This document shows, piece after piece, positions 26,800-50,545 of a DNA stretch of 64,000 nt; position 1 is the first letter of the stretch, and each line of letters opens with the position of its first letter. A program made the translations under genes and the position numbers. Origin of the DNA: a virus (lineage: Duplodnaviria > Caudoviricetes); the IMG/VR virus record IMGVR_UViG_3300028048_001801, positions 96,180 to 160,179 of that record; one strand, written 5' to 3'. The notes beneath the pieces were generated by a model. It did no database searches and was not told where the DNA came from. It worked only from the letters and a program-made list of their open reading frames with translations.

Positions 26800-26836
26800 G
26801 TAAAATTGACATCTTTTAAGAAATAAAATTGCATTT

Positions 26837-27346
26837 TTATTTTTTATATTCTAAAGTCACAAGCGTGTCGTTTTTGCTACCGCCATGATTAACAATCAAA
26901 ACATCGGTCATTTCAAACCCGCGTCCTTTCCTGAGCCCATTGGTATTCCACCCGCAGGAAATGACTTTGCCGCCAGGTTTTAATATCCTTGCGATATTAT
27001 CTTTAATCAGAGAGCAATATTTCATATTAGCGACATTGACTTCGAGTTTGACTTTGCCATATGAATGATATAACTCTGATGCTTGTGTAATAGAATATGG
27101 CGGATCGTATAAAACCAAGTCGGCACTTTCGTCGGGCAGCATCTTAAGGAATTCAAGAGCATCCATGTGATAATCGGTCTCAAATTCTGGATTGAGATCA
27201 TTAGTAATAGTTCCATATTTACAGTTGTTCGCAAAGGGATCTACTATCGCATCACTGTTCGCCACCTCTCGTTCGACAAGCTCTTTAATGGGTTTAATAG
27301 TAAATGTGTTCCCGTTAGGCATTGCCCATTCTTTTTTGAATTCCAT
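26837..27346 (-). CDS. Small adenine-specific DNA methyltransferase-like protein
   Basis: VDPFA (SAM-binding), DPPY catalytic motif, RILKPGG. Confidence 0.8.
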   Translation of the reverse strand: MEFKKEWAMPNGNTFTIKPIKELVEREVANSDAIVDPFANNCKYGTITNDLNPEFETDYHMDALEFLKMLPDESADLVLYDPPYSITQASELYHSYGKVKLEVNVANMKYCSLIKDNIARILKPGGKVISCGWNTNGLRKGRGFEMTDVLIVNHGGSKNDTLVTLEYKK

Positions 27347-27703
27347 TTAATACACCACACACTTTTTATTATTATATTTAACAATATAATCGTATAATTC
27401 CTCTATCGTTTTTAGAAATACAACCTCGCCGTCTGCTTCTTCAATAGCCATATCCCTATTGCCCCAATCACACTCGTATATAAAATATTGAATATCGTCA
27501 CCGAATCCAACATAACCACCATATTCAATATCCATCAGATCACAAACCATTTTGGTCATAGTGGTAATTTCATCAGAATAAATCATCGCTATTCCTTCAC
27601 CGTCTCTATTAAGAGAACGAAGTATCTCGTCAAGAGCCCTCTCTTTGTCGAAGGCGTTTTTAATTGCCTGCATATATTCTACAAATTTTTCTTTACTAAT
27701 CAT
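27347..27703 (-). CDS. Hypothetical protein
   Basis: 118 aa; IQYFIYECDWG..TIEELYDY phage-family pattern. Confidence 0.75.
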   Translation of the reverse strand: MISKEKFVEYMQAIKNAFDKERALDEILRSLNRDGEGIAMIYSDEITTMTKMVCDLMDIEYGGYVGFGDDIQYFIYECDWGNRDMAIEEADGEVVFLKTIEELYDYIVKYNNKKCVVY

Positions 27704-27707
27704 AAAA

Positions 27708-27890
27708 CTAAATTATCTCCTTAAAATATAATATTTTAACAGTACTATGATTGTGTGCTTTTCTTATAAGATCTTCTATCTTTTGCAAAGATGTAATATT
27801 ATCAAGTTTTTCTGGAGGGGTTAATATCGCATTGTCAAACCCAGAAAAACTACCATCGATATAACAATAAGATACGAAATATTTATACAT
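27708..27890 (-). CDS. Hypothetical protein
   Basis: 60 aa, MYKYFVSY start, in operon. Confidence 0.6.
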   Translation of the reverse strand: MYKYFVSYCYIDGSFSGFDNAILTPPEKLDNITSLQKIEDLIRKAHNHSTVKILYFKEII

Positions 27891-27901
27891 ATAAAATTAT
27901 T

Positions 27902-28135
27902 TTAATTTTCTGATTCGACGTGGCGATATTCATACCTCGCCACATTGTCCATCTTGGAAAGAAAGGGAGTATGACAGTCGGGGCACTCAATGCTTCCGTA
28001 CCCATCTATTTTTCTTTCCAAATATTCAAAATCTTCTATGCCACACTTAAACACACATCCGCAAGTTGGACATGTGAGAAAATAAATAGTTTTTGTTTTT
28101 CTCTGAATATTACCAGGCCTAATTATTTCTTTCAT
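27902..28135 (-). CDS. Zn-ribbon protein
   Basis: CPTCGC...CPDC. Confidence 0.7.
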   Translation of the reverse strand: MKEIIRPGNIQRKTKTIYFLTCPTCGCVFKCGIEDFEYLERKIDGYGSIECPDCHTPFLSKMDNVARYEYRHVESEN

Positions 28136-28144
28136 ACTAACCCC

Positions 28145-28627
28145 TCAGTTTTTTTCATATAATAAAAACGGTCTATAACCGATGCGCTCTACGCAGAGAC
28201 ATTTGCTGGTAGCGTTGTCTACATAACGCTCGTCATTATGCACATGACCGTAGTAATTCATGTACGGCGTGGTTTGGCTCAATATTAACGGTGCATGACT
28301 CAGTAGATAAAACCCGTCATACAGTATGGGAAATCTGCTCACGGTATGGAATCCCATATCTCTATAAGTTTGTTCGGACCAATTATCATGATTTCCCATT
28401 ATTAAAATCTTTTTCCCATTTAGTCTTCTCGCAATGTTTGAAATATACTCTTTATTGCCAAGCCCAAAATCGCCAAGATGAAGAACCACGTCTTTGTTTG
28501 ATACGGTTTCGTTCCAAAGCTTAATCATAGCTTCGTCCATTTCTTCGACACTTGCAAAAGGTCTATTACAATATTTAATTATATTTGCATGCCCAAAGTG
28601 GGTGTCGCTAATTCCAAATATTTTCAT
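28145..28627 (-). CDS. Calcineurin-like phosphoesterase
   Basis: SDTHFGH, HLGD, GNHD, SHAP, GHVH. Confidence 0.9.
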   Translation of the reverse strand: MKIFGISDTHFGHANIIKYCNRPFASVEEMDEAMIKLWNETVSNKDVVLHLGDFGLGNKEYISNIARRLNGKKILIMGNHDNWSEQTYRDMGFHTVSRFPILYDGFYLLSHAPLILSQTTPYMNYYGHVHNDERYVDNATSKCLCVERIGYRPFLLYEKN

Positions 28628-28629
28628 AT

Positions 28630-29541
28630 TTACTTTTTATCCTTATAAAAATCTATACCATAATTAAAGCAAGTTGACCACCAAATCCCAAGTCTATCCG
28701 CTTTTCTGCTTAATTTTTTCATAATTTTTTCCAATCCTTTAGATTCTTCTTCGTCTAAAGAATAACAACCTGCCGTCGAAACCAAATCAGAGTTAAGAGA
28801 TAAAGGAGCAATTATATCGTATCTTGGAGTACAATGATCACCACAATCCCTAATTCTGGCTCCTTCATAATTAGGAATTATATTCTTTTCTACCCATCTA
28901 ACGGTCTTAGCATTAAATATTTTAGTATATTTGGCCTCTTTGTCCTCATGTTTGATCCACTTAAAGTATTTTCTTTTTGCCTCTTTACGAGACATATAGA
29001 CATGATTGTAATCTAAGAGTTGATGGTGTCTGCAAAATGCCAGATAAGGCTCATTTTCAATAAACTCAATGTCTGAAAATACATCAAACATACCTGCCAT
29101 GCATAATTCTTGGTCTTCTGTGAGTTTATTCCCATCACACACATTATGTTCTGAAAGATAAATATTTTCTACTATAGCAGAAGCAGACGGTTTAAATTTG
29201 TCTATATCCCTTTCGAATTGAGCAAAGAACTCTCCCCTGACATTATCATTACTAAACTCCCAAAATACTCCGAACAACCATCCTGGGCATTCTTTTATTC
29301 TAAAATGTAAAACAGAATTGGTACCGAAGCCAAAGATAAAATAACCATCTAAATATTTTATATCTTTATCGTCTATAGTATAAGGGTGAAACAAACAGCT
29401 AGAATATCCTTTTCTAAGTTCTTTAATTAGAGTGTCGGAAGCAATTTTAAAATCACAAGCGTGACCTTGCTTATCCGCCTCTTCGACCTGTTCTTTATAC
29501 ATTTTAATCAAATTTTCTAATGGGTTTTTAGCCATAAACAA
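28630..29541 (-). CDS. Hypothetical protein
   Basis: 303-aa ORF with GGAGG SD below a promoter. Confidence 0.8.
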   Translation of the reverse strand: MFMAKNPLENLIKMYKEQVEEADKQGHACDFKIASDTLIKELRKGYSSCLFHPYTIDDKDIKYLDGYFIFGFGTNSVLHFRIKECPGWLFGVFWEFSNDNVRGEFFAQFERDIDKFKPSASAIVENIYLSEHNVCDGNKLTEDQELCMAGMFDVFSDIEFIENEPYLAFCRHHQLLDYNHVYMSRKEAKRKYFKWIKHEDKEAKYTKIFNAKTVRWVEKNIIPNYEGARIRDCGDHCTPRYDIIAPLSLNSDLVSTAGCYSLDEEESKGLEKIMKKLSRKADRLGIWWSTCFNYGIDFYKDKK

Positions 29542-29566
29542 ACCTCCTAAAATATGTTGTGGCTAT

Positions 29567-29595
29567 ATTATACACTAATAATATAGCCTTGTCAA
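29567..29595 (-). promoter_or_regulatory. sigma70/sigmaA promoter
   Basis: TTGACA-17-TATAAT. Confidence 0.8.
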
Positions 29596-29608
29596 CTATT
29601 AATGTTAA

Positions 29609-29926
29609 TCATAATTTCCCCTTATTATTCTTATTTATACACATAATTCCCTTAATCATCCCGCTCGTCGAGCAAATTACGATGCAGCTATTGATTAACT
29701 CTTTCTCACTTTTGGCATCAATATACTTGCCGCTCCAATCGAAATAACCCTCTTTCATTCTCGCAACAAGCCCTGCTTCCCGAAAATACTCGACAAAATC
29801 AGTACTCCAATCAAGTAATTTTCTCTCTTCTTTGAAGGCGCTCGGGCTGTCTAAAAAGTCTTTAATATTATCGCCGACGTGAAAATCCTGTGTGCCTTTA
29901 ACGAGATACATTGCATAAAGTTTCAT
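29609..29926 (-). CDS. Hypothetical protein
   Basis: 105 aa, GGAG SD within junction palindrome. Confidence 0.65.
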   Translation of the reverse strand: MKLYAMYLVKGTQDFHVGDNIKDFLDSPSAFKEERKLLDWSTDFVEYFREAGLVARMKEGYFDWSGKYIDAKSEKELINSCIVICSTSGMIKGIMCINKNNKGKL

Positions 29927-29941
29927 AATAAAACTCCTATT

Positions 29942-30226
29942 TTATTTTCCTAAATCTTTGTTTGTTATCTTGAATTTTTGCATAACTTCCTGTATAAGAA
30001 AGATTAAACTTAATTCGTTAAAAGGTTTTTCCGTAAGAAAATCGACAACAAATTTCACAACTTCCGTATATGCTTTATGTTTGATTTCATCCTCGTCAAT
30101 AGGTTTCGGCCAATAAGGCGTGGTGTCGGGTATAATTTCCCTACGAACCCTCAAATATTCTTCGGGCTTTTCAGGTGCTTTCCCCGTTCTCTGAACGTGG
30201 TCAACTATATAACAAAATTCATCCAT
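29942..30226 (-). CDS. Hypothetical protein
   Basis: 94-aa ORF. Confidence 0.65.
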   Translation of the reverse strand: MDEFCYIVDHVQRTGKAPEKPEEYLRVRREIIPDTTPYWPKPIDEDEIKHKAYTEVVKFVVDFLTEKPFNELSLIFLIQEVMQKFKITNKDLGK

Positions 30227-30293
30227 TTATCCATGTCTCCTTCCGTATACTCAAAATTTTTCATCTTTTCTCCTTATAAAATAGAGTGTTTAT

Positions 30294-30530
30294 TTATAAA
30301 ACGATACTTTTATTACCGCTTAAGTCTCTTGTATCTGTTTCAGCGCTAAGTATTATGTCATTATTTGTAGACATAGAAGTGTCTACATTCTTATATATCT
30401 CGTCATAGTTGGTTCCAAACAACTGATTATATGCCTGTGTGAAAGAAAGATTTGGATGCTTTCTTCTATACTTTTCTACTTTACGACGAGTCTCTCTATT
30501 CGTATTTGGTGGTGTATTGTAATAAAGCAT
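30294..30530 (-). CDS. Hypothetical basic protein
   Basis: Start moved to ATG 30530, just after the upstream stop. Confidence 0.55.
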   Translation of the reverse strand: MLYYNTPPNTNRETRRKVEKYRRKHPNLSFTQAYNQLFGTNYDEIYKNVDTSMSTNNDIILSAETDTRDLSGNKSIVL

Positions 30531-30532
30531 TC

Positions 30533-30748: not shown

Positions 30749-30751
30749 ATT

Positions 30752-31018: not shown

Positions 31019-31021
31019 AAA

Positions 31022-32158: not shown

Positions 32159-32187
32159 ATTTTAACACAAATAAGAAAATTTGTCAA
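32159..32187 (-). promoter_or_regulatory. sigma70/sigmaA promoter
   Basis: TTGACA-17-TAAAAT with TG. Confidence 0.75.
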
Positions 32188-32232
32188 CTGTTTTAAGCCA
32201 TATTTTCGAAATAAAACAAACCTTTTATTTTT

Positions 32233-34554: not shown

Positions 34555-34569
34555 AATAAAACATGTGTT

Positions 34570-34968
34570 TTATTCCACAACCGGTATAATAGTTGGTGTT
34601 ATTACTACACTCGATTCCTTAACAGATAATAAATCAATAGCATCAAGAATTGACTTAGCAAATTCTTCCGCCAGTTTCATTGTCTCTACATCTCTCCATC
34701 GGAATTCTTGTTCCCATGTGACAGTACGGTTAAGCCAGGAACCCTTTTCCACTCGATGCCAAATAATGTCGCAAGGAACATCAAAAGTCTTGCAGTAGCA
34801 AATCCCGTTGTATCGTATGCTTACGTCTATCGCTCGCTTACCTGGATTTGGATTTATTAATATTCTTCCACTTTTATATTTATAATCAAAAGCTCTCAGT
34901 GGAGCAGAAGATGTTCTGCCTTTATGCCACTCTTGATAATTTTTATATTCTACTTTATCTACTCTCAT
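34570..34968 (-). CDS. Hypothetical protein
   Basis: ATG 34968 with GAGG SD; bracketed by palindromes 34556 and 34981. Confidence 0.7.
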   Translation of the reverse strand: MRVDKVEYKNYQEWHKGRTSSAPLRAFDYKYKSGRILINPNPGKRAIDVSIRYNGICYCKTFDVPCDIIWHRVEKGSWLNRTVTWEQEFRWRDVETMKLAEEFAKSILDAIDLLSVKESSVVITPTIIPVVE

Positions 34969-34994
34969 ACTGTTTTCCTCATAAAACACGCGTT

Positions 34995-35261
34995 TTATTT
35001 TTCTCCTGCTCCAAGAAATTCGTTGTCATAGCCTAACCAAGTGAAACATGCTACAAACTTGTCGCCTTCAAAATATCCTAAAGAATAATAACACACAAAA
35101 TCATCGTCTTCACATTTTTGATATAAGACATCACACTTTGCAGGAATTATAAGATCACCGTACCCAGAAAGGTTTAACTCGTAGTAATTGTTATTATAGC
35201 ATGACTTATCTTTAAGGTGCGTCATGTATTTTGGATCTAACTCGAATTTGAACTCTATCAT
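34995..35261 (-). CDS. Hypothetical protein
   Basis: 88 aa; stop codon inside palindrome 34981. Confidence 0.7.
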   Translation of the reverse strand: MIEFKFELDPKYMTHLKDKSCYNNNYYELNLSGYGDLIIPAKCDVLYQKCEDDDFVCYYSLGYFEGDKFVACFTWLGYDNEFLGAGEK

Positions 35262-35298: not shown

Positions 35299-35327
35299 AT
35301 TATATATTATAAATAGTATTTTGTCAA
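35299..35327 (-). promoter_or_regulatory. sigma70/sigmaA promoter
   Basis: TTGACA-17-TATAAT. Confidence 0.8.
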
Positions 35328-35386
35328 CTGTTTTGAGGTAGTTTTTAAAAATTTTTTAATTTATTTTTATAAAAGAATAGTTTTAT

Positions 35387-35587: not shown

Positions 35588-35619
35588 ATTTTCTCTCCTT
35601 TATAAAAGAATGTTTTTAT

Positions 35620-36608: not shown

Positions 36609-36633
36609 ATAATCTCCTAATAAAATTTCACTT

Positions 36634-37239
36634 TTATATCTTTTTTTCGAAATAGTTTACGCCATTAACAAGCTCTTCCTTAGTTAAAGCCCAAGTTTTA
36701 CCATAGTCATCTATGTGATAAGTATTGGCATCGGGACCTGGCCAGCCCCAAACGTAATAAAGATGATTATAATAAAGCTGCGAATCAAACGGTTTTATAT
36801 GGATAATTTCAACATGCGGTTTGTTTGTGTATTCTCCTCCATACATTGTCCCATAAAACCCCTTTACAAATGCTGTTTGAAGTTTAATCTTTTGAGAATC
36901 GGATAGAGACCAGTCGGTTATGTTATTCACTAAATTATTAAAGGCATCAATTTTATAGTTGTTTTTCTCGCAAAATTTTTCATAAAATTCCAAGGGATTG
37001 TCGGACCATGTTTCGTTGCGATCTTCATAAAACCATTCTCCTCCAAACCCATCGGAAAACGACTCTGCACTAATTGGGGAAAACGAATCTTTGTTGTATT
37101 TAGAAATACGATTTCTTTTATCTACAACACAAAGTGTTTCACCCAAGGCGTTAAATTTCTTTTGCGCCAATTGTTCCCTCATTTTCTGTTCTTCTTTAAG
37201 TCTTATTCTTTCTGCGTCTTCTTCGGTCCAAAGTTTCAT
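36634..37239 (-). CDS. Hypothetical protein
   Basis: 201 aa; WGWPGPD..YGKTWA. Confidence 0.8.
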   Translation of the reverse strand: MKLWTEEDAERIRLKEEQKMREQLAQKKFNALGETLCVVDKRNRISKYNKDSFSPISAESFSDGFGGEWFYEDRNETWSDNPLEFYEKFCEKNNYKIDAFNNLVNNITDWSLSDSQKIKLQTAFVKGFYGTMYGGEYTNKPHVEIIHIKPFDSQLYYNHLYYVWGWPGPDANTYHIDDYGKTWALTKEELVNGVNYFEKKI

Positions 37240-37266
37240 TTTTACCTCTTTTATAAAATTACTTTT

Positions 37267-37770
37267 TTATTTAGATTGTTTTAACAATCCGTCATAATAT
37301 TTAACCAAATCCCTAGCTTGTTTGCTTTCCTTTTGAGCGCTCTTTAATAGCTCCCTAACAGAGTGTCTGCCGTATTGCTTCCAAATTATTTTGTTTGTAC
37401 GTAAATCTACGATAAAACCACATTCCACCGTTGTTAAATCCGAGGCGTCAACCCAGCAAAACAATTTTCTTTTAAGGGAGTCCAAAAATTGTTCCGATCC
37501 TGTGGTAGCTACAACACATCCGCGTAATATAGCAACCAAATAAGCATCGCCATCTCTATATGGTTTATCATCTGAATAAATAAAATTTTCTTCCCACTCC
37601 GGGCTATATGGTAATCCATTGTCGATATAAAAATCCTTTATACTGATTTTGGTTTTATATTTTTCAGCCTCTTTCTCGTTTTCTTTGAGGGTTTGTATTA
37701 AAACCATTCGCTCCTCAGGTGTCATTTTTTTTATTCTATCTATTTCATTCATTCCATAAAGCTGACTCAT
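37267..37770 (-). CDS. Hypothetical protein
   Basis: 167 aa. Confidence 0.75.
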   Translation of the reverse strand: MSQLYGMNEIDRIKKMTPEERMVLIQTLKENEKEAEKYKTKISIKDFYIDNGLPYSPEWEENFIYSDDKPYRDGDAYLVAILRGCVVATTGSEQFLDSLKRKLFCWVDASDLTTVECGFIVDLRTNKIIWKQYGRHSVRELLKSAQKESKQARDLVKYYDGLLKQSK

Positions 37771-37793
37771 TTATTGTTTTCTCCATAATGAAA

Positions 37794-38144
37794 TTAACAT
37801 TTTTTTATTATGCCCTCTTCGAGCATATAATCAAAAATCTCTTTATCGATTTCTCTTGCCTCGTCGGGATAAAAACTATATACATCTGTCCAGCCTTCGA
37901 TGTAAAACCCCTTAACCTTTGTTATGTAAAACGCACAATCAGCGCCTGTTTTTATTTCGCAGCCGAGAGAACGAAGATAGTCTATACAAGAAATATCTCT
38001 TAATCCATCTACAAAAGTAATTTTTGTTTTAGGTGTATAGTGCTGTTGTATAGTTGGTCCAAAGTGTTTATAAACTTCAGGCCTGGCATTTACAACTTCT
38101 GGCTCAGCGAGTTTTGCCGCAAAGTATTTAATCTTTTCATCCAT
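37794..38144 (-). CDS. Hypothetical protein
   Basis: 116 aa. Confidence 0.7.
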   Translation of the reverse strand: MDEKIKYFAAKLAEPEVVNARPEVYKHFGPTIQQHYTPKTKITFVDGLRDISCIDYLRSLGCEIKTGADCAFYITKVKGFYIEGWTDVYSFYPDEAREIDKEIFDYMLEEGIIKKC

Positions 38145-38150
38145 ATGAAA

Positions 38151-38357
38151 TTAACCTTTTATTTCTTCTTTGCCAACTGCTTCTGCAGCGGGATTCCACG
38201 TAATATCCGCCATTGTTAAAACTCGACAGTTCTCAATGTGTGGATTGAGTATTTTATGATCGGAGGCATATTTATATGCCGTCTCTTTGCTGTCAAAAAC
38301 CCTATGTGTAAACAACGGTGTTTGCCCATCGTTATCAAATAACACAGATACTTTCAT
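38151..38357 (-). CDS. Hypothetical protein
   Basis: 68 aa. Confidence 0.65.
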   Translation of the reverse strand: MKVSVLFDNDGQTPLFTHRVFDSKETAYKYASDHKILNPHIENCRVLTMADITWNPAAEAVGKEEIKG

Positions 38358-38373
38358 GTTTCACCTTATAAAA

Positions 38374-38874
38374 CTAAACTTTTATTTTCTCGTTTTCAGC
38401 ATTCCTAAATATTTCCATGGCCCTACAAACATCGTTAACATTCTGAGTGTCTATTAACGCTTGGATATTTTCCTTAGCATAGTCTATAACGGTTTCTCTT
38501 ATCTTTTTATTAGAATATTTTTTATCGCTATAAACTACATAAAAAAGGCGTTTCTCTATAAAACTGCAACCCCATCCACCTCCTTGTTTTGAAACACAAG
38601 GGGTTATTTTTATCCACGTATCATCATCGTTAACCGAAACGCGTTTGTTTTTAGGATCAAACGTAATACAAAAGACTACTTCTGTCTTATAATATTTCAT
38701 TTTTTCACGCCAATGATCATATGTATTAAGTTCGCGGATATAGCATCTGGGATCCTCTGTATCAATCCAGTCCTCTGCGATTTGTTTGTCAAGAAAAACC
38801 TTTTCGATAATCTCTCTGTCTTCTAAACGAGACACCGACTCGTTTCTCATTGCTAAATAAACTTTCATAAACAA
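38374..38874 (-). CDS. Hypothetical protein
   Basis: 166 aa. Confidence 0.75.
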   Translation of the reverse strand: MFMKVYLAMRNESVSRLEDREIIEKVFLDKQIAEDWIDTEDPRCYIRELNTYDHWREKMKYYKTEVVFCITFDPKNKRVSVNDDDTWIKITPCVSKQGGGWGCSFIEKRLFYVVYSDKKYSNKKIRETVIDYAKENIQALIDTQNVNDVCRAMEIFRNAENEKIKV

Positions 38875-38887
38875 CTGCCTTATAAAA

Positions 38888-39361
38888 CTAATTTTTCATT
38901 TCTTTATTGCATTGAGCCTCGATTAAATCATCAGGGATTCCCTTTCCCGCCAAGACACTTTCTCTTATTTTGCCCATCAACTCAGAATCTTCGTCTGAAT
39001 AGAAGCGCCAAGTTTGTTTTGTAGCGTCTAGGCCAGTCATTTTTTTATAATCTTCTAAACTCGTAAAACACATAAGGTTATAAAGGTTTTGCACATATTT
39101 ACCTGTTTGGGGATCTATGTTATACATAATAAGCTCTAATTTTATTTTATCAACATCCTGTTCTTCGTTTTTTGTGACAGGGTCGTCCGCACCTACTATT
39201 ACGCCACAATCACCACGATCAAAATGAACGACATACTGATTTTTTTTATTTATAGCGACTATTACACCCACTCCATCCAAATATTCTGCGGCACGTGGGT
39301 ATTCATGCTCACTATGTATCATCATCTTTTCAATTTTAACAACCGTACCTATTTTAAACAT
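38888..39361 (-). CDS. Hypothetical protein (SH3-like N-terminus)
   Basis: MFKIGTVVKI..; ATG 39361 with GAGG SD. Confidence 0.7.
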   Translation of the reverse strand: MFKIGTVVKIEKMMIHSEHEYPRAAEYLDGVGVIVAINKKNQYVVHFDRGDCGVIVGADDPVTKNEEQDVDKIKLELIMYNIDPQTGKYVQNLYNLMCFTSLEDYKKMTGLDATKQTWRFYSDEDSELMGKIRESVLAGKGIPDDLIEAQCNKEMKN

Positions 39362-39699: not shown

Positions 39700-39732
39700 A
39701 AGTCCGCCCCTTCTATAAAACTAGATTTTTAT

Positions 39733-40265: not shown

Positions 40266-40922
40266 TCACTCTTGGCATTTTGCTAGATCACGATATTTGA
40301 CCTTAACGATAATTCTGTTGCCCTGAGCATCCAACAGTCTAACATTCGGCACACATACAAACCCTTCTTTTTCGGTAGGCCTATCTTCTGTGGCGTATTT
40401 ACTCATATCTTTGATGCCCATTTTGATATTGTCTTTGACTTTATCAATAAGTCGTGTCAAACTTCCGACCTCGAAGAATTCAACTGTTTCTACACCAAAA
40501 TAATCGAATATATCCTTGATAACTCTCTTGTCGAGATACATTCCGTTTATCATGACGTCAAAACCAATAAGTCTTTCCGAACCGCCATAAACGCCACCCT
40601 GTATTTTACCACCGTAACACTCCATAAAAAGCATTACTTCTTTATTTCCGAAGTTTTGTTCAAAGATAACCTCGCTCTCCCCGAAGGTTTTTTGTAGAAG
40701 CTCTTCAACCTCTTTGGGTAATTGGCTCTTGTCGGTTCTTCCACTCCACGAAACTCTGTGTCCGTCATATTCCACCCTAGTACTCATTCCGTCAACTTTT
40801 TCGCTTGCCAACCACGATAAATTTTTTAAATAATCTATTTCGGGAGTTGTTATTTCATTTGTGTATTTTTTGGTTATTCCATCAAATTTATAAAGTGTAT
40901 TTATTTTCTGATATTCTTTCAT
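40266..40922 (-). CDS. Rnl2-like RNA ligase family nucleotidyltransferase
   Basis: EKVDG (motif I), ECYGGKIQ, GFDV, EGFV, IVKVK. Confidence 0.8.
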   Translation of the reverse strand: MKEYQKINTLYKFDGITKKYTNEITTPEIDYLKNLSWLASEKVDGMSTRVEYDGHRVSWSGRTDKSQLPKEVEELLQKTFGESEVIFEQNFGNKEVMLFMECYGGKIQGGVYGGSERLIGFDVMINGMYLDKRVIKDIFDYFGVETVEFFEVGSLTRLIDKVKDNIKMGIKDMSKYATEDRPTEKEGFVCVPNVRLLDAQGNRIIVKVKYRDLAKCQE

Positions 40923-40947
40923 AAGACCTCCAAATAAAACGATGTTT

Positions 40948-41127
40948 TTATCTTACTTCAAACTTCTTCGCAAGGTTCCGATAATATTCGATCCTTGCTT
41001 TTAACTCGTAGTCCTCTCCGCCACCCTCGCAGGATTTGATATACTCAACCTCCCAATCGTGGATAGCTAAGAGGATACATGCGTTAACCTTTTGACTTTC
41101 TAATTCGGTTAGTTCAACCGTTTTCAT
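40948..41127 (-). CDS. Small hypothetical protein (59 aa)
   Basis: MKTVELTELESQKVNAC..., GGAGG SD, stop in palindrome 40934; below ORF-track cutoff. Confidence 0.6.
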   Translation of the reverse strand: MKTVELTELESQKVNACILLAIHDWEVEYIKSCEGGGEDYELKARIEYYRNLAKKFEVR

Positions 41128-42765: not shown

Positions 42766-42790
42766 GTTTACACCTTCATTGATAAAATTG

Positions 42791-43030
42791 TTATTTTATT
42801 TCTATAGAATCAAGTTCTGATATAGGCATCCAACCAATAACTTCATCTAATTTATAATATCCACAACCGTCGTCCAGGAAAATAAGTATATTGTCTTTTA
42901 TTTGTAGCGTACCTATTTGATACCCTTCATACAAAACCCTATTCCCTGGTCCGCCATAATAACTATATTTAAAAACAACCTGTTGTTTATTATCTTTAGG
43001 TAATTCTTTCTTCGGATCTCTAAAATACAT
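42791..43030 (-). CDS. DUF551-like protein
   Basis: ELP...VIGWMPI. Confidence 0.65.
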   Translation of the reverse strand: MYFRDPKKELPKDNKQQVVFKYSYYGGPGNRVLYEGYQIGTLQIKDNILIFLDDGCGYYKLDEVIGWMPISELDSIEIK

Positions 43031-43924: not shown

Positions 43925-43939
43925 AATAAGAACCTCTTT

Positions 43940-44419
43940 TTATTTATATGTGCTCAATGAATCTCTAACGCCTTTAATATCAAGTTGCAAAGAATTTAAT
44001 GTTTGAAAAATATCTTGCAAAGGTATTATCTCAAAGGTGTCAGCACTATCTCCATTGTCCTTCCAACAAATCATAAACTTAAATGATGGGTTAGCATATT
44101 GATCAAACATCGGTAATAAACAACAAGGGTTATTTTCCAATTCAAAGTTATACTTCTTTTTAATGGTGGCAACGAGAGGTAAGAAATCGGATTTATTTTT
44201 AACTTCGTAAATCATTGGCTTAAAAGTACCGTAGGCGAAAAGATTGCTTAAAGTCTCACATTCTATTAGTCTTCCAATCTCAAAACTCTTTAAATCACCT
44301 TTTAATTTTAAGGCGTTTTCGTAATCTTCAACTAATCTTTTATTTTTACTCTGCAGTTTTCCGTCTTCTGACTCGTAAAGAATCTCTTCAATTACCTTAG
44401 TGCTTTTAATTTCTTTCAT
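43940..44419 (-). CDS. Hypothetical protein
   Basis: 159 aa. Confidence 0.75.
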   Translation of the reverse strand: MKEIKSTKVIEEILYESEDGKLQSKNKRLVEDYENALKLKGDLKSFEIGRLIECETLSNLFAYGTFKPMIYEVKNKSDFLPLVATIKKKYNFELENNPCCLLPMFDQYANPSFKFMICWKDNGDSADTFEIIPLQDIFQTLNSLQLDIKGVRDSLSTYK

Positions 44420-44439
44420 AATAAACCTCTTGTTTTATT

Positions 44440-45163: not shown

Positions 45164-45222
45164 CGCCGCCACCTCTTGATAAAACTGTAATTTTATTTCC
45201 TGTCATCAGACTTACTACCGCT

Positions 45223-46610: not shown

Positions 46611-46709
46611 GCGTTTTTGACAGTATTTTTTAAAAAATTTTCAAAATGAATTCAGAATTTTATTCTTTTGACCCAATGGTTGACCCAGTCGACCAAATGA
46701 ATTTCAGTT

Positions 46710-47123
46710 TTATTCTTTGGGTTCCTTCTTATTATCACAACACTCAGGCCAAATCCAATGCTCTAGGTCATCTATATATAATCTATACCTAGTATAACAA
46801 ACACAATTTTTGTCAAGACTGGGGGCGAATACCTTGGAACTTGTGATGGTGTAATACTCGTGTTTATATCCTAAGAAATTCGAAGGATTATCAGCCCCGT
46901 CGCCAAAAAGTTTAATAGCAACCTCGAAAGTTTTATCTTCCGCTGTTTCAAACTCCTCATAATAAAGCGGTAGATCGAACTCAATAACATCACGGATTGC
47001 GCCTTCTGCGTTAACGGTGTAGTGATTGTAGTTCGCAACGTCTTTATATTCTTTACCTTTAAATGTTAAAATCGGCGCCATTGCATAGAATTTCACATTT
47101 TCTTTTTTTGCTTCTTCTTTCAT
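46710..47123 (-). CDS. Hypothetical protein
   Basis: ATG 47123 with AGGAG SD. Confidence 0.7.
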   Translation of the reverse strand: MKEEAKKENVKFYAMAPILTFKGKEYKDVANYNHYTVNAEGAIRDVIEFDLPLYYEEFETAEDKTFEVAIKLFGDGADNPSNFLGYKHEYYTITSSKVFAPSLDKNCVCYTRYRLYIDDLEHWIWPECCDNKKEPKE

Positions 47124-47156
47124 ATTTACTCCTTTTTGGTTAATAAAAACCATATT

Positions 47157-47432
47157 TTATTTATTTGGCACCTCTTCGTCCCACATATGGTCAACAATGT
47201 GTTCAAATGTATCCATAATTACAAAGTAATCTCTTAATACGTCGCGATACTCGATATCCTCATCTGCATTGTCTCCTGCACAGATGCTTGAGTAAAGTGC
47301 ATTTATATCAAAATTCTTATCTTTTGCGTAATCAAATTTCTCAAGAATCCCGATGAGTTTGTAAATATTACGCATATCTAGAAATAAATTGTCCATTTCT
47401 TCTTTTTGTTTAAAAACTTGTTTGTATGTCAT
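47157..47432 (-). CDS. Hypothetical protein
   Basis: 91 aa. Confidence 0.7.
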   Translation of the reverse strand: MTYKQVFKQKEEMDNLFLDMRNIYKLIGILEKFDYAKDKNFDINALYSSICAGDNADEDIEYRDVLRDYFVIMDTFEHIVDHMWDEEVPNK

Positions 47433-47444
47433 AATTTATTCTCC

Positions 47445-47702
47445 TTATTTCTGCAACCCATACATAATGATCGGTGCACCATCTTGATATACAAGAGACC
47501 CCAAGGTATTAAAATCTATCCAATCTCTCGCTTCATCTTCGGTCCAACCCTCTTCTTCCATCGCCGCTTCAACCATCAAGTCATAATCATATATAACACG
47601 GTCATCATGGCTCACGCCAATTATAGCCTTGTCGAAAGAAGGATTTTCGAAGATAACTAAATCTTCATATCCGTTGTCGCACAAAATTTCTCTGTTTGTC
47701 AT
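47445..47702 (-). CDS. Conserved phage hypothetical protein
   Basis: FDKAIIG..VIYDY..EARDWIDFNT..API pattern. Confidence 0.75.
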   Translation of the reverse strand: MTNREILCDNGYEDLVIFENPSFDKAIIGVSHDDRVIYDYDLMVEAAMEEEGWTEDEARDWIDFNTLGSLVYQDGAPIIMYGLQK

Positions 47703-47706
47703 GTGT

Positions 47707-47958
47707 CTACTCCTTTGGAATACCGCTTCTTATCTCGTTGATAAAAGATTTCATAGGCGTGTCTTCATTATCGAAATAATGTTCGCGATCGAAATAACGA
47801 TAGTATACGTATTCTACAATAGTCTTAGAGAATGCGCCTACTATAAAATTATTTTCTATAAAACTTATCACGATAAAACTATCACAGTTTTCAAAATCGC
47901 AATCGGGGAAAAACATTTCGTCTCTCCCTTTTACTTTAATACATACGCCATTCATCAT
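47707..47958 (-). CDS. Hypothetical protein
   Basis: 83 aa. Confidence 0.6.
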   Translation of the reverse strand: MMNGVCIKVKGRDEMFFPDCDFENCDSFIVISFIENNFIVGAFSKTIVEYVYYRYFDREHYFDNEDTPMKSFINEIRSGIPKE

Positions 47959-47973
47959 AATAAAGTCTCCGTT

Positions 47974-48159
47974 TTATTCTGCTTTTAATTTCGATATGAT
48001 GGTCTCAAATTCGTCGTTTGTTTCGATTTCCTTCCCCGTTGTCATTGTGATATATGTGCACTTTCCGCCAAAGGTCATTATTTCTTCTATCGAAACTATT
48101 TCATTTTTATTTACAAAAATCGAATGCCCATCACTTTTACGTATCATCAAAAAATTCAT
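47974..48159 (-). CDS. Hypothetical protein (FlbD-like small beta domain)
   Basis: IFVNKNEIVSIEE..TYITMTTG pattern. Confidence 0.6.
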   Translation of the reverse strand: MNFLMIRKSDGHSIFVNKNEIVSIEEIMTFGGKCTYITMTTGKEIETNDEFETIISKLKAE

Positions 48160-48188
48160 ATTCTCCTCCTTATAAAATCGAAGTTTTA

Positions 48189-48416
48189 TTAACGCCTATC
48201 TTCTTGGATTATTTCGTTTAATGCCTCAATCTCGTATTCACATTCAAGAAAACGTTGACCGCTTTTTTCATGATTATATTTTAGTTGATATAGCGCATTT
48301 CTAATCTTTAAAAGATCGGGTAAAAGTTTATCGTCGACTCTATTATGTAATTCTTCAAGTCGGTCTAAAAAAGCTTGTTTATTCATACACCCTTCGTTAT
48401 CATAATATCTTCTCAT
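48189..48416 (-). CDS. Hypothetical protein
   Basis: 75 aa; bracketed by palindromes 48172 and 48432. Confidence 0.7.
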   Translation of the reverse strand: MRRYYDNEGCMNKQAFLDRLEELHNRVDDKLLPDLLKIRNALYQLKYNHEKSGQRFLECEYEIEALNEIIQEDRR

Positions 48417-48445
48417 ATATTATATCCTCTCATAAAATGGAAGTT

Positions 48446-48937
48446 TTATTCTTCTCCCGCATAAATCTTTGCGAGCTTTATAAACTTCTTCTGAAGCCTT
48501 TTAGCAAAGTTTTCTTGTGTATCGGTACATCCACAGTAGTATCTAATCGGGAAAGTATTTGAGCTGTCGAACTCTATGTCTGCTCTTTCGTTAAAATCAG
48601 GCCCGTATTTACTTCTATTTTGAGAGACAAGTTCAATAGAATACCCCGTAGGATTCCAATATGTGCCTTTGGGGAACCCGCCGACACAAGCGTCCATAAA
48701 ATCCATAAGACTCTCATTGTCCCGAAGATAGGCATGCACACCGCCCTTCGCCTTGATGACATCTTTGCTATAGGCGATAAATTCCTCTATCGTGTATTTG
48801 CCTTGCTTCATTTGGACACAATAATTGTTTTTCGGGCAATGCATATAATCACACTTCTCACAATCGCATTTGGTAAAATTGATTGTCCTTCCGATGTCAA
48901 ATTTCTGATTTTTAACAGGTTCCCATTTCGTTTTCAT
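48446..48937 (-). CDS. Hypothetical protein
   Basis: 163 aa, Cys cluster. Confidence 0.75.
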   Translation of the reverse strand: MKTKWEPVKNQKFDIGRTINFTKCDCEKCDYMHCPKNNYCVQMKQGKYTIEEFIAYSKDVIKAKGGVHAYLRDNESLMDFMDACVGGFPKGTYWNPTGYSIELVSQNRSKYGPDFNERADIEFDSSNTFPIRYYCGCTDTQENFAKRLQKKFIKLAKIYAGEE

Positions 48938-48950
48938 ATTATACCCTCTT

Positions 48951-49163
48951 TCAATATAAGTCTTTATAAAAAATAAGATTCATAACAGAACCTACTACAC
49001 ACCCCACACCCGCGGCAACCACGCATGCAACAGGCAAAGTAAATAAATCAAACACATATTGCATAATCGCCCCGAAGGCTATCCCGAGTACTCCCAAAAT
49101 AAACACAATTATTAAAAACAACTTCATTTTCGTCTCATACCTCTTCTTTTCTCTCCGCTTCAC
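48951..49163 (-). CDS. Small membrane protein
   Basis: Hydrophobic; true start is probably a few codons downstream. Confidence 0.6.
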   Translation of the reverse strand: MKRREKKRYETKMKLFLIIVFILGVLGIAFGAIMQYVFDLFTLPVACVVAAGVGCVVGSVMNLIFYKDLY

Positions 49164-49476
49164 GACAAGTATCCGTATAATCTACAGGATACCAATAACC
49201 TATATCGTCCTGGGTAAGTAATTTTCCGAACTTTTGAGCTTTTAATCCGCAACTAAATCTCCAATCATTAGATTTTTTGAGCGCCCACTTACACTCCCCG
49301 CAAGGAATAACGTTCTTAAAATTATCTACCTCTTCTGTCAGCTCCTTTAGACACTTTTTACAAAGAGGGATTTTAATGCTCCCAACTTTGCAATCAATAC
49401 TTAATTCTGCATAAGTGGGAGCCCCACAAACGCAGCGTTCTTCTGAATCATAGTCTTTTAATTTGAGTGTTATCAT
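49135..49476 (-). CDS. Cys-rich hypothetical protein
   Basis: 113 aa, several CxxC. Confidence 0.7.
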   Translation of the reverse strand: MITLKLKDYDSEERCVCGAPTYAELSIDCKVGSIKIPLCKKCLKELTEEVDNFKNVIPCGECKWALKKSNDWRFSCGLKAQKFGKLLTQDDIGYWYPVDYTDTCREAERKEEV

Positions 49477-49508
49477 TATGTCTCCTATGATGAAATCACA
49501 CTTTTATT

Positions 49509-49583
49509 TGGTGGGAAAGCAGGAAGTTGAATCCTGTCTTAGAGAGCCACAATCTCTCGTGCTACCGTTACACTACATTCCCC
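49509..49583 (-). tRNA. tRNA-His(GUG)
   Basis: AGAGA-TT-GTG-GC-TCTCT arm, encoded G-1, A73, CCA. Confidence 0.85.
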
Positions 49584-49586
49584 ATA

Positions 49587-49660
49587 TGGCAGGCGGTAGT
49601 TGTTCTGCCCAACCGTACTCGGAGTCAAAGTCCGATGCACTACTATTGTGCTAACCGCCT
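49587..49660 (-). tRNA. tRNA-Gln(UUG), atypical T-loop
   Basis: TCGGA-CT-TTG-AC-TCCGA arm, AGGCGGT/ACCGCCT stem, GCCA end; T-loop GGCAGAA. Confidence 0.8.
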
Positions 49661-49663
49661 ATT

Positions 49664-49938
49664 TCCAACTGCCGTGAATTTCTCAGCAGTTGATTGAACG
49701 CAGACTGGATGATCTTACCCTCTGGATTATTTCGCCCTACTCGATAAGTCTTTATAACCCAGCTGCGCATATACTTTAACTCTTCCCCTCGTCACCACAT
49801 GCAACTTTACGACGAGTCATTTTCCAACTTCCTTTCTCACGGTGTATCGCTTTTCGGAGTCGCTCATTCCTTAATTGCACCGAATAGGTTGGCTGTGGCA
49901 CCTCTCTATCTTCTCAGACCTGTTATGAGGTGAGTTAA
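49664..49938 (-). ncRNA. Putative structured ncRNA (about 275 nt)
   Basis: Multibranch set of inverted repeats, no ORF, upstream of tRNA-Gln. Confidence 0.5.
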
Positions 49939-49964
49939 AAACTTAATAAAATCCGTTATCTCTT

Positions 49965-50315
49965 TTAAATATCTTCTCTCGGATTTAACCAATGACCCGC
50001 CTTTATGTACCACATTATATGAAGCAATGGCTCGTCATACTTATCATAAGTAACTTTACCGTGCCAAATTCTAAAAATGGGTTTCAAATAATATGTTCTA
50101 TCCGAATTGTTAAACCCTATTTCGCAAATTCTTGAGAATGAGTATTCATCTTTGGCCGCTTCTGCTTTAAGTACATCATACGCTTCTTCAAATTCGTCTG
50201 CTTTAAAAAGATAATAATCTTCCAATGCTCCGAATTTGCCTGATATTAAAACGACATAGGAGAAATTTGGTTGATCGGTTCTTTCTTTTAATTTAGTATA
50301 TTGAATAAAGTCCAC
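49965..50315 (-). CDS. Hypothetical protein
   Basis: 116 aa, GAGG SD. Confidence 0.7.
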   Translation of the reverse strand: MDFIQYTKLKERTDQPNFSYVVLISGKFGALEDYYLFKADEFEEAYDVLKAEAAKDEYSFSRICEIGFNNSDRTYYLKPIFRIWHGKVTYDKYDEPLLHIMWYIKAGHWLNPREDI

Positions 50316-50353
50316 AACACACCTCTCTCATGCTTACAAATAAAATTCGTATT

Positions 50354-50545
50354 TTATTTTGATGAAAAATATACCCCTACTAGACTAGACTCGGTAATCG
50401 GGAATCCATCATCATCCAACACCCTCTCATCCACAACCTGTGAAAACAAGGCTATAAACGAACCGTTATCTGCTTCGATGATCTTCTGTTTTTCTTTGCC
50501 GTTGCCGTTTTTATAAGTCAATACAAGTTTGCTCATGTCTATCAC
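50354..50545 (-). CDS. Hypothetical protein
   Basis: 63 aa; stop in palindrome 50340. Confidence 0.6.
   Translation of the reverse strand: MIDMSKLVLTYKNGNGKEKQKIIEADNGSFIALFSQVVDERVLDDDGFPITESSLVGVYFSSK

Follow-up and report, generated by a model that had tools for sequence, protein, structure and literature searches.

The motif and its placement

The DNA analysed here (the window, 64 kb) is part of the 160-kb genome of a gut phage (G000). Between 26823 and 50357 its genes lie on the minus strand, and in the accessory-gene region they form long operons that have strong promoters and lack terminators. The palindrome ATAAAA-N6-TTTTAT occurs in 25 exact copies in the window, 19 of them within 26823-50357, and in 41 exact copies in the whole genome; a further 12 copies in the window have one mismatch (a first-pass annotation had counted 23 and 9, respectively). 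Dinucleotide shuffles give a mean of ~0.07 exact copies per 64 kb, close to the earlier estimate of ~0.1. In the genome, all other arm spacings from 0 to 20 nt are represented by 0-2 copies each, and reversed or direct arrangements of the arms by 0-4 copies each; the excess at N6 is confirmed as real. The full motif in this genome is A-ATAAAA-N6-TTTTAT-W, and that of the wider phage group is ATRAAA-N6-TTTYAT. With 41 exact copies and only 5 R/Y variants, the arms are unusually strict for a regulator site, a point that counts against the binding-protein reading given below.

Sites are distributed across the genome at approximately one per 5 kb, and are dense in the early accessory-gene operons, where almost every other junction has the motif. 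In the interval from 22 to 52 kb, ~30 of ~62 junctions bear it with at most two mismatches. Most copies occupy the gap from a stop codon to the next Shine-Dalgarno, as the first-pass annotation had described for the small-gene junctions, and the typical order in the direction of transcription is stop codon, motif, 0-6 nt, Shine-Dalgarno and start codon (Table 1). One site abuts the 3' end of tRNA-His, so that a tRNA gene is bounded by the motif as well. Four copies are upstream of sigma-A-like promoters, whereas in the relative L102 sites are placed between the -10 box and the Shine-Dalgarno. No site in G000 overlaps the -35, -10 or +1 positions of the strong early promoters, and a classical operator role is thus not evident, which again counts against a binding protein.

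Some sites are intragenic. Eight copies lie inside real genes, whereas resampling of synonymous codons predicts 0.62 (at most 3 in any of 300 runs), which indicates selection on the DNA sequence itself, also away from junctions. The earlier statement that none were seen in the long replication genes is corrected by the exact copies at 11382 and 16494.

Table 1. Motif sites by position in the window (TD, spacer in transcription direction).
Position	Match	Spacer	Context	In relatives
2029..2046	exact	TTAGGC (+ strand)	intergenic, adjoins two copies of CCACAATATATAG	
11382..11399	exact		within Pyr_redox_2 oxidoreductase gene, translated NKNVILF	
16494..16511	exact		within T4-type RNA ligase 1 gene	
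22843..22860	exact		after stop codon, ~21 nt upstream of TTGACA promoter preceding DnaE polymerase operon	
26823..26840	exact		upstream of 12/12 sigma-A-like promoter at 26799	L092 homology starts here; L092 spacer differs
29928..29945	exact, class II	TAGGAG (Shine-Dalgarno)	ATG 1 nt past motif	
30276..30293	one mismatch	ACTCTA (TD)		spacer retained in L093 despite other upstream gene
30296..30313	exact		3' end of small ORF	
32211..32228	exact		23 nt upstream of promoter at 32187	
34556..34573	exact		junction: stop, motif, Shine-Dalgarno	
34981..34998	exact		junction	
35369..35386	exact		after stop codon, 41 nt upstream of 12/12 promoter at 35327	
35602..35619	exact	4/6 bases in common with 35369	junction	
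36620..36637	exact		junction	
37253..37270	exact		junction	
37788..37805	two mismatches	TGTTAA		L092 homology block stops 10 nt beyond
38145..38162	one mismatch, ATAAAA-GGTTAA-TTTCAT	GGTTAA (TD)		three upstream flanks across window, L087, L092; same downstream gene
38368..38385	exact	GTTTAG	junction	
38882..38899	one mismatch	AATTAG		retained in L087, both flanks different
39715..39732	exact	ATCTAG		18-bp island: three upstream and three downstream sequences among window, L087, L092
40248..40265	one mismatch, ATGAAA-ACTTGA-TTTTAT	ACTTGA	after RNA ligase gene	homology with L087, L092, L093 stops here; downstream, L087, L092 and window all mutually different
40934..40951	exact	ACATCG	upstream of RNA ligase gene	L093: promoter abuts left edge, replacing 59-aa gene
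42782..42799	exact		junction	
43926..43943	one mismatch, class II		Shine-Dalgarno within spacer	
44421..44438	one mismatch, class II		Shine-Dalgarno within spacer	
45179..45196	exact		junction	
47143..47160	exact		junction	
47960..47977	one mismatch, class II		Shine-Dalgarno within spacer	
48172..48189	exact	CTTCGA (TD)	junction	
48432..48449	exact	CTTCCA, 5/6 bases in common with 48172	junction	
49490..49507	one mismatch		begins 1 nt past 3' end of tRNA-His (49509-49582, minus)	
50340..50357	exact		junction	
60874..60891	exact		AT-rich intergenic stretch	
63366..63383	exact		64 nt upstream of gene start	

Half-sites, transcripts and promoters

The placement of the motif relative to translation starts would suit an RNA element, i.e., an AU hairpin or an unpaired AU-rich stretch just ahead of the ribosome-binding site. 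Such an element might act as an operator or enhancer of translation, or mark where early polycistronic transcripts are cut between cistrons. In approximately 26 of the 41 exact copies the motif stops 10-19 nt ahead of a start codon, and in four sites (class II) the spacer, which would form the loop, is itself the Shine-Dalgarno. The flanks are also asymmetric relative to transcription (A at -1 in 36/41; spacer ending in T in only 3/41), and the long operons with strong promoters and no terminators fit such an element. Against this, a forced 6-bp RNA hairpin reaches only -0.45 kcal/mol, the distance to the Shine-Dalgarno is variable, and eight copies are intragenic and four upstream of promoters. 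A strict 6-nt spacer of free sequence is, moreover, typical of dimer-DNA recognition. The motif family of the relative G028 comprises 9 G/C, 7 G/T, 7 A/C and 1 A/T sites, all N6. The arms show no pairing covariation (Fisher p 0.19), and G-U sites (7) are not preferred over A-C mismatched sites (7). Because the half-sites vary independently, these sequences favour a dimeric DNA-binding protein over an RNA hairpin, and we consider the RNA element unlikely.

The number and spread of the sites, including the intragenic copies, are reminiscent of T4 late promoters. The genome encodes a 975-aa protein matching PF05183, and the motif could in principle be a promoter or other signal for a phage YonO-like (two-barrel) RNA polymerase, through which each small gene would gain a second, phage-specific transcription start; the YonO promoter is not known (PMC5467207). 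This idea is highly improbable in our estimate: nine genomes of the G004 clade, which lacks the motif, have the homologue, no homologue was detected in the G001 clade, which has the motif, and G004 contains no other over-represented inverted repeat. In addition, the palindrome confers no direction, and in many sites the Shine-Dalgarno begins 0-2 nt past the motif or falls within it, which leaves no space for a leader.

Gene exchange at the sites and the phage recombinase

Comparison with four natural relatives, at 80-98% nucleotide identity, and with the eight genomes of a second clade (the G001 clade) shows homology blocks that stop at site edges in both sets. Single 18-bp sites, including the spacer, are retained in relatives between genes that are unrelated on both sides. 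In the window lineage, five consecutive sites retain their spacers, although L087 and L092 have unrelated genes between them. Crossovers fall to either side of the spacer. Within the G001 clade, one and the same site occurs with two left and three to four right flank types, and a one-gene indel is flanked by two sites; the deletion in G025 relative to G033 fused two sites with different spacers. Conserved motif 18-mers lie beside a homology break in 40% of pairwise comparisons, versus 12% for other junction 18-mers, and both flanks differ in 12% versus 0.4%. Since homology blocks end at site edges and 18-bp islands persist, the sites are module boundaries marking exchangeable genes. The earlier prediction that breakpoints of gain, loss and replacement map to the motif was borne out in L087, L092, L093 and the eight-genome clade. 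About half of the module breakpoints, however, fall at junctions without a motif, and, counted by junction, breaks are no more frequent where the motif is present than where it is absent (10/20 versus 90/226).

Neighbouring spacers resemble each other, as the first-pass annotation had claimed. Summed over the 41 sites, adjacent-spacer matches number 90 versus 67 expected (permutation p 0.0008; p 0.0002 in the window and 0.002 in 26823-50357), and the excess is greatest for pairs <1.5 kb apart and for the spacer 3' half. No identical spacer pair occurs anywhere in the genome. The spacer stays put while the genes on both sides change, and is therefore not borne by a cassette, unlike attC.

A tyrosine recombinase, which the first-pass annotation had proposed to look for elsewhere in the genome, is indeed encoded outside the window (G000:26422-27480). 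The protein is Xer-like, has 352 aa and adjoins a RuvC-like gene, and its best solved relative is XerH; an integron integrase identity was rejected (TIGR02249, 30 bits versus a cut-off of 265). The gene is ~100 kb from the densest array, with no site adjacent to it. Its presence tracks that of ATRAAA-N6-TTTYAT across 45 genomes, 24 of which are well covered. The recombinase is present in 11/11 genomes of at least 70% completeness with at least five sites and absent from eleven with at most two, and recombinase and motif family are concordant in 22/24 well-covered genomes. One of the concordant genomes is G019, which has neither, although its GC content and the similarity of its DNA polymerase to that of the query make it look akin to G016-G018, which are rich in the motif and carry the recombinase. 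Motif subtype is not predicted by how similar the recombinases are: the nearest relatives of the G000 enzyme (G024, G028 and G042, 42-44% identity) come from genomes with ATGAAA/TTTCAT sites or with hardly any sites, and the G001 clade has identical sites yet two recombinase types, 39% and 30% identical to that of G000.

The sites might therefore be dedicated recombination sites, where the Xer-like enzyme binds both arms and carries out strand exchange within the 6-bp spacer. As each site has its own spacer, exchange would be confined to the same slot in two co-infecting genomes (natural cassette exchange), and now and then an event between two neighbouring sites would insert or delete one gene. 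We regard this as doubtful, though it deserves weight. Inverted arms around a 6-bp centre are the layout of Xer/dif sites, and the single-recombinase sites difH and difSL flank their centre with GAAAA/TTTTC, resembling ATGAAA-N6-TTTCAT (PMC5357621). The enzyme with its RuvC-like neighbour, its concordance with the motif (G019 included), the breaks exactly at site edges, the 18-bp islands and the one-gene indels between two sites all agree with such a system, as does the similarity of neighbouring spacers, which site duplication upon insertion would produce. Of the other DNA-binding families sought in the genome (HTH_3, HU, HTH_17 and RHH), none was detected, and the recombinase is the only protein found whose usual target has such a layout; both points also count against the binding-protein reading. 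Opposed to recombination sites are the independence of enzyme and motif subtype, with two enzyme types present in a clade of identical sites, the distance of the gene from the array, conserved arms of only 6-7 bp versus 10-13 bp in known sites, and the off-motif breakpoints. The intragenic copies have no obvious cassette role, the G025 deletion united sites with unlike spacers, and several motif-bearing relatives are recorded as proviruses, which suggests that the enzyme is simply their integrase. The first-pass proposal of an integron-like cassette array thus holds for the module boundaries, neighbouring spacers and recombinase co-occurrence, but not for the fixed spacers, enzyme type, motif subtype, intragenic copies or half of the breakpoints; an integron-like tyrosine-recombinase mechanism at the sites is not established.

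The same motif is found in phages with DNA polymerases only 41-44% identical, and closer relatives lack it, as might be seen if it were a site for a nucleoid protein or global regulator of a Firmicute host that phages accumulated independently. The motif tracks a phage gene, the recombinase, and subtypes A and G are clade-specific, which makes a host factor improbable.

Proposed reading and known systems

We tentatively read the motif as a putative binding site of a dimeric, sequence-specific DNA-binding protein, with a role in transcription and in gene exchange. In favour of this reading are the specificity for N6, the independent arms, the weak hairpin, the intragenic copies, the variable placement relative to promoters, the flank asymmetry, the co-occurrence with the recombinase and the module exchange at the sites. 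The protein would be tied to the temperate, recombinase-bearing members of a large DnaE-encoding siphovirus group, and when bound could act on transcription through the accessory operons as an operator or roadblock, like mycobacteriophage stoperators. The 18-bp site is the only sequence common to unrelated neighbouring genes, and so may also be where crossovers occur when co-infecting relatives swap, gain or lose whole genes, probably via short-homology recombination, as with the PeSL elements of T4-type phages. Identity of the reader, transcriptional role and recombination pathway are what we infer from these patterns. A phmmer search gave no small protein exclusive to motif-bearing genomes, which speaks against a dedicated binding protein, and arms of 6-7 bp offer very little homology for ordinary recombination, yet crossovers flank the spacer on both sides.

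Integron attC/attI-IntI systems likewise have single-gene units split by recombination-type inverted repeats after each ORF, at which gene content differs among relatives. attC sites, however, are imperfect palindromes of 57-141 bp that travel with the cassette and are recombined by IntI as folded single strands, beside attI and a common promoter. The sites described here are 18 bp, their spacers remain in the scaffold when genes change, each unit is equipped with a ribosome-binding site and some also with a promoter, and the recombinase falls outside the integron type. difH/XerH and difSL/XerS share inverted arms ending in RAAA(A)/TTTY around a 6-bp centre (PMC5357621), and the phage enzyme is of XerH/XerS size, but dif sites have the longer arms noted above and occur once per replicon beside the recombinase gene, versus 41-46 copies here. 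SAS and ESAS of Cluster K mycobacteriophages (PMC3203893) are repeats of unassigned function upstream of many non-structural gene starts that sometimes overlap the preceding stop codon, and ESAS are inverted repeats with a variable spacer. SAS is, in contrast, an asymmetric 13-mer containing the Shine-Dalgarno, and ESAS has 17-bp arms and 4-13-bp spacers, whereas spacing here is strict and copies are also intragenic and upstream of promoters.

The closest known analogues are the stoperators and the PeSL shuffling cassettes of T4-type phages. The stoperators of Cluster A mycobacteriophages, e.g., those of L5 gp71 (PMC9283540, PMC6550527), are dozens of copies of one short site across a temperate phage genome, mainly in short intergenic gaps and often overlapping stop codons, with a subtype that varies among related clades. 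They are 13-bp asymmetric sites for a monomeric repressor with a single working orientation, and a role as exchange points is not in their description; the present motif has a perfect palindrome core whose half-sites are independent, and the four families sought yielded no repressor gene. PeSL (promoter-early stem-loop) cassettes (Arbiol et al. 2010, PMC2839356; Comeau et al. 2014, PMC4122927) are likewise short and conserved, number ~50 per genome and lie between genes, from stop codon to Shine-Dalgarno, in small-accessory-gene regions, with a few copies in core regions; indels and replacements between close relatives end at them. A PeSL combines a sigma-70 promoter with a G+C-rich terminator stem-loop, and both activities have been demonstrated, whereas the element here is an 18-bp palindrome, AT-only around a free 6-bp spacer, with neither promoter nor stable hairpin, in a temperate Firmicute siphovirus where each site retains its own spacer through exchanges.

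A strictly spaced palindrome packed into accessory-gene operons

The window forms the final 64 kb of a 160,179-bp IMG/VR virus record that is rated complete (36.5% G+C). The DnaE-type polymerase of this phage is ~38-39% identical to those of its nearest named relatives, which are large Bacillus/Geobacillus siphoviruses such as Tsamsa and E3, and is closer (43.5%) to that of an unannotated human-faecal phage. The INPHARED phage collection contains no nucleotide relative, and a genome-contig scan with the polymerase as query found no prophage relative. Window 26823-50357, which the first-pass annotation had proposed as an integron-like array of gene cassettes, contains ~60 small genes, all on the minus strand and nearly all of them matching no known family. 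The region includes eight sigma-A-like promoters (five of them perfect, 12/12), a terminator scan of it found no excess, and it has the layout of early polycistronic operons. The phage also encodes two different RNA ligases (RNA_lig_T4_1 and PF09414) alongside tRNAs and a metallophosphoesterase, a combination suggestive of an RNA-repair set that counters anticodon nucleases of the host.

The motif ATAAAA-N6-TTTTAT is present in 25 copies in the window, where shuffles predict 0.07, and in 41 copies in the genome. It is strictly N6: the same hexamers at the other spacings from 0 to 20 give 0-2 copies each, and reversed or direct arrangements of the hexamers give 0-4. When the 41 sites are read in the local direction of transcription, position -1 is A in 36, and the base following the motif is T in 20 and A in 15. 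The last base of the 6-bp spacer is T in just 3 of 41, while the mirror position is A in 13 of 41 and is not depleted, and the site therefore has some asymmetry relative to transcription. Conservation of the arms ends after 6 bases downstream and 7 bases upstream; the arms are perfect and the site is 18 bp long. A literature search by the motif letters returned nothing relevant. Some sites in several clades have another conserved word, CCACAATATATAG or ACTATATATAGT, no more than ~40 nt away, which could be a phage-specific promoter or another protein site.

About 26 of the sites end 10-19 nt ahead of a start codon and have the upstream stop codon in or against their left arm; the whole intercistronic gap thus consists of the motif and a Shine-Dalgarno sequence, which in four sites constitutes the spacer. 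In four cases the site precedes a -35 box by 21-41 nt. No -35/-10 pair was found inside the motif or at a fixed distance from it; promoters occur at only ~8 junctions, and the array holds several 12/12 promoters of its own. Eight sites fall inside genes of at least 80 codons, compared to an expectation of 0.62 when synonymous codons are redrawn (maximum of 3 in 300 runs); the well-defined ones among these genes include a Pyr_redox_2 oxidoreductase, a T4-type RNA ligase, an LRR protein and a glutaredoxin. The motif is selected throughout the genome and is packed into the accessory-gene operons. Its origin by chance or base composition is ruled out by the shuffles, the spacing control and the synonymous-codon resampling. 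A tRNA-His gene with a one-mismatch site beside it appears to occupy a slot as a protein gene does.

The motif is a strictly spaced palindromic site of the protein type, and a role at the RNA level is less likely. The 6-bp AU hairpin, when forced, has a mean energy of -0.45 kcal/mol. Other clades of the same phage group have a variant, ATGAAA-N6-TTTCAT, again only at N6, and in one complete genome (G028) the two arms are combined as G/C in 9 sites, G/T in 7, A/C in 7 and A/T in 1. The arms therefore vary independently, with A-C mismatches as common as G-U pairs and no positive covariation. Independent arms are the prediction of a protein dimer that reads two half-sites (ATRAAA), and not of base pairing. 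With no covariation and a marginal folding energy, hairpin pairing was rejected.

Coordinates of features in the phage and its relatives (G000, whole record; G001 and G042, relative genomes; L092, contig of a natural relative)
Feature	Position	Strand	Remark
Tyrosine recombinase, 352 aa, Xer-like	G000:26422-27480		outside the window
YonO-like two-barrel RNA polymerase, 975 aa	G000:51185-54112 (L097:11185-14112)		matches PF05183, a eukaryote-type RdRP family
RNA ligase, RNA_lig_T4_1	window 16314-17468		
RNA ligase, PF09414	window 40266-40922		
tRNA-His	window 49509-49582	minus	alone among small accessory genes
One-mismatch motif site	window 49490-49507		follows the tRNA-His gene after 1 nt
Second conserved word, CCACAATATATAG/ACTATATATAGT	window 2047-2110; G001:17660-17700; L016, L027, L028, L029		two copies adjoin site 2029
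86-nt non-coding piece	L092:1365-1452		
Direct repeat, ~130 bp	G042:43666-43810 and 75756-75900 (L114, L115)		three blocks

Relatives exchange whole genes at the sites

No two of the 41 spacers are identical. The first-pass annotation had noted that neighbouring spacers resemble each other, and permutation bears this out: adjacent spacers are more alike than permuted ones in the genome (p = 0.0008), in the window (p = 0.0002) and in the small-gene region (p = 0.002). The excess peaks at separations below 1.5 kb and, within the spacer, in its 3' half. Tandem gene duplication is ruled out as the source of the similar neighbours, since the flanked genes include no paralogues. A copied mini-element is likewise ruled out, as every spacer is different and the flanks have nothing in common.

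The IMG/VR relatives nearest by polymerase (56-61% identity) have neither the motif nor another over-represented inverted repeat. Four Logan contigs from other samples carry the PF09414 RNA ligase gene at 80-98% nucleotide identity, and in three of these (L087, L092 and L093) homology stops at site 40248, after this gene. Downstream of the site, the sequences of L087 and L092 differ from each other and from the window, while for L093 the stop is a BLAST endpoint only. The next site, 39715 (spacer ATCTAG), is an 18-bp island with three unrelated sequences upstream (a 166-aa gene, a 157-aa gene or an 86-nt non-coding piece) and three unrelated genes downstream. The AATTAG, GGTTAA and ACATCG sites behave in the same way. 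The spacer of a site stays put while the genes on both sides of it change. In L092, ~11 kb of window genes are replaced, and the replaced stretch ends at, or no more than 10 nt from, sites 37788 and 26823. No significant similarity was found by BLASTP among the same-slot proteins of the window, L087 and L092. Motif-free junctions (41214, 41143, 30228, 29600 and 26747) account for about half of the distinct breakpoints in the window's lineage.

Two smaller observations concern the same contigs. The RNA ligase gene of the window and its copy at L087:42-698 differ at 16 of 716 aligned bases; despite this, the proteins are identical, and the gene is therefore under strong purifying selection between freely exchanged slots. 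In L092, which is 91% identical, the 86-nt piece stands in place of a gene between the ACTTGA and ATCTAG sites. The piece contains the tRNA T-arm-like sequence GGTTCGACTCC, and may be a tRNA remnant or a small RNA; ARAGORN calls no tRNA in it.

A second clade comprises eight genomes with a polymerase 44% identical to that of the query; they share 4-8 sites of the same motif, in the same stop-motif-Shine-Dalgarno context. Here, the same site and spacer occur with two types of left flank and three or four types of right flank. Where two genomes (G025 and G002) have a single site, two others (G033 and G021) have a pair of sites enclosing an additional small gene, and the spacers of the pair differ at two positions. 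Among conserved 18-mers from junction windows, a homology break adjoins motif 18-mers in 40% of pairwise comparisons, compared to 12% for other 18-mers, and both flanks differ in 12% compared to 0.4%. At the level of junctions, those with the motif are not broken more often (10/20, compared to 90/226 for the others), and what sets them apart is the surviving island (6/20 compared to 9/226). Breakpoints also occur at junctions that have no motif; replacement of genes is thus widespread in these regions and does not require the motif. The motif nonetheless provides a precise crossover point, which is used preferentially and is itself kept. In both the window's lineage and the second clade, then, gene content differs by whole units bounded by sites, as the first-pass annotation had anticipated, and the sites are boundaries at which relatives exchange whole genes, and apparently a tRNA, while site and spacer persist.

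Candidate readers of the site

The genome encodes a Xer-like tyrosine recombinase, at 26.4 kb, with the array at 123-147 kb; a search for serine recombinases found none. The likeness of the enzyme to Xer is generic: it scores 63 bits on the XerC model, far under the cut-off, and 30 bits on the integron integrase model TIGR02249, for which the cut-off is 265. Its best solved relative is XerH, its neighbours are a weak RuvC-like resolvase gene and a holin gene, and an Atlas look-up of the enzyme yielded no host. The locus (G000:26422-28670; L096:6422-8670) places it between tail-region genes, which is an unusual place for an integrase.

Co-occurrence of enzyme and sites (ATRAAA-N6-TTTYAT) was scored in 44 relatives and the phage itself. 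Among the genomes at least 70% complete, a recombinase homologue is present in 11 of 11 with at least five sites, and is missing from eleven with two or fewer, the exceptions being G024 and G022. One genome (G019) lacks both the motif and the recombinase, and looks kin to the motif-rich G016-G018 by polymerase similarity to the query and by GC content; it shares no alignable accessory junctions with G016. Motif subtype is not tracked by recombinase similarity, as the closest homologues of the phage enzyme are in G-subtype (ATGAAA/TTTCAT) or nearly site-free genomes, and different recombinase types accompany the same sites in the G001 clade and in the G026/G042 pair. The motif is a feature of those members of the phage group that are temperate and carry the recombinase. 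Several relatives are recorded as proviruses, and the co-occurrence may therefore reflect only this link to temperate phages. No attachment-site repeats were found at the ends of the provirus record G042. Within that record, the recombinase gene lies on a 32-kb segment with a ~130-bp direct repeat at either side; the segment may represent a nested element within the prophage, or the repeats may be attachment-site-like.

The main rival to a regulatory reading has the sites recombined directly by the Xer-like recombinase or by another dedicated enzyme. It fits well with the unique spacers, the islands and the likeness of neighbouring spacers, and poorly with the short arms, the failure of recombinase and subtype to co-vary and the intragenic copies, and we consider it rather doubtful. 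A more specific form, which we judge to be unlikely, is a cassette-exchange scaffold in which such an enzyme recombines only sites with matching 6-bp spacers. Every junction would thereby be individually addressed, relatives infecting the same cell could swap the gene in a given slot and leave the gene order unscrambled, and slots would be gained or lost through rare events between neighbours with similar spacers.

A host-factor site or a signal for a phage polymerase is less likely. The gene for the YonO-like RNA polymerase heads the structural-gene block, outside the window; a signal for this enzyme was rejected, its homologues occurring throughout a motif-free clade. Profiling of gene content between motif-bearing and motif-free genomes gave no reader candidate, the only proteins clearly shared being the recombinase, dUTPase, DnaE, an HNH protein and a phosphoesterase. 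No HTH_3, HTH_17, RHH or HU proteins were detected in the genome, in which most small proteins match no family.

Our tentative preference is for the site as the target of a candidate dimeric DNA-binding regulator, stoperator-like in character, that doubles as a crossover point of short homology in the manner of a PeSL. The putative dimer would bind the site and act as at a stoperator, and exchange would take place by short homology at the same 18 bp.

Significance and comparison with known systems

It has long been asked how phages trade accessory genes so precisely at gene boundaries. The explanations usually given are random illegitimate events followed by selection, or the few linker elements described, such as PeSLs. 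The motif is strictly defined, very short and easy to mutate. It marks points of exchange in large temperate Firmicute phages of at least three clades from gut metagenomes, and natural variants already display slot-by-slot gene replacement; any cultured relative would therefore open the question to experiment. Should the binder be a repressor, the stoperator principle would extend beyond actinobacteriophages. Involvement of a dedicated recombinase would make the sites a gene-cassette platform of a new kind, and perhaps a tool; the cassette-exchange scaffold, if true, would be a phage counterpart of the integron, akin to engineered heterospecific lox exchange.

The likeness to integrons proposed by the first-pass annotation holds for one defining feature only, namely that gene content varies unit by unit at the sites. 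Integrons are defined by IntI and its specific insertion, and the phage recombinase, on its TIGR02249 score, is not of the IntI type. The attC sites are imperfect palindromes of 57-141 bp that are cassette-specific and move with the cassette, unlike the 18-bp phage sites with their perfect arms. In an integron, the integrase gene, attI and a common promoter adjoin the array, whereas here the recombinase is far off and the array has its own promoters. Xer core sites (PMC5357621) have inverted arms around a centre of 6-8 bp, a geometry shared by the phage motif at strictly N6; the ~10-13 conserved bases of Xer/dif arms are about twice the length of the phage arms, and the phage site is present in 41 copies. 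A Xer site is bound and cleaved by its cognate recombinase; for the phage motif, co-occurrence with the recombinase is positive for presence and negative for co-variation with subtype.

PeSLs (PMC2839356, PMC4122927) resemble the motif in their effect on genome evolution, in that breakpoints of indels and replacements between close relatives fall at the elements in both cases. They differ in containing a sigma-70-type promoter, which the motif lacks, and a stable terminator stem-loop, where the hairpin of the motif is marginal. PeSL cassettes are further characterised by mini-circles excised between neighbouring elements. Stoperators (PMC9283540) and the phage sites alike are found in temperate phages, in many copies throughout the genome and mostly in short intergenic gaps. 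A stoperator is bound by an immunity repressor that its phage encodes; in the present genome, searches for HTH_3, HTH_17, RHH and HU proteins found none, and most small proteins match no family. The stoperator is an asymmetric site used in one orientation, whereas the core of the phage site is a perfect palindrome, with asymmetry only in the flanking base and the last base of the spacer.
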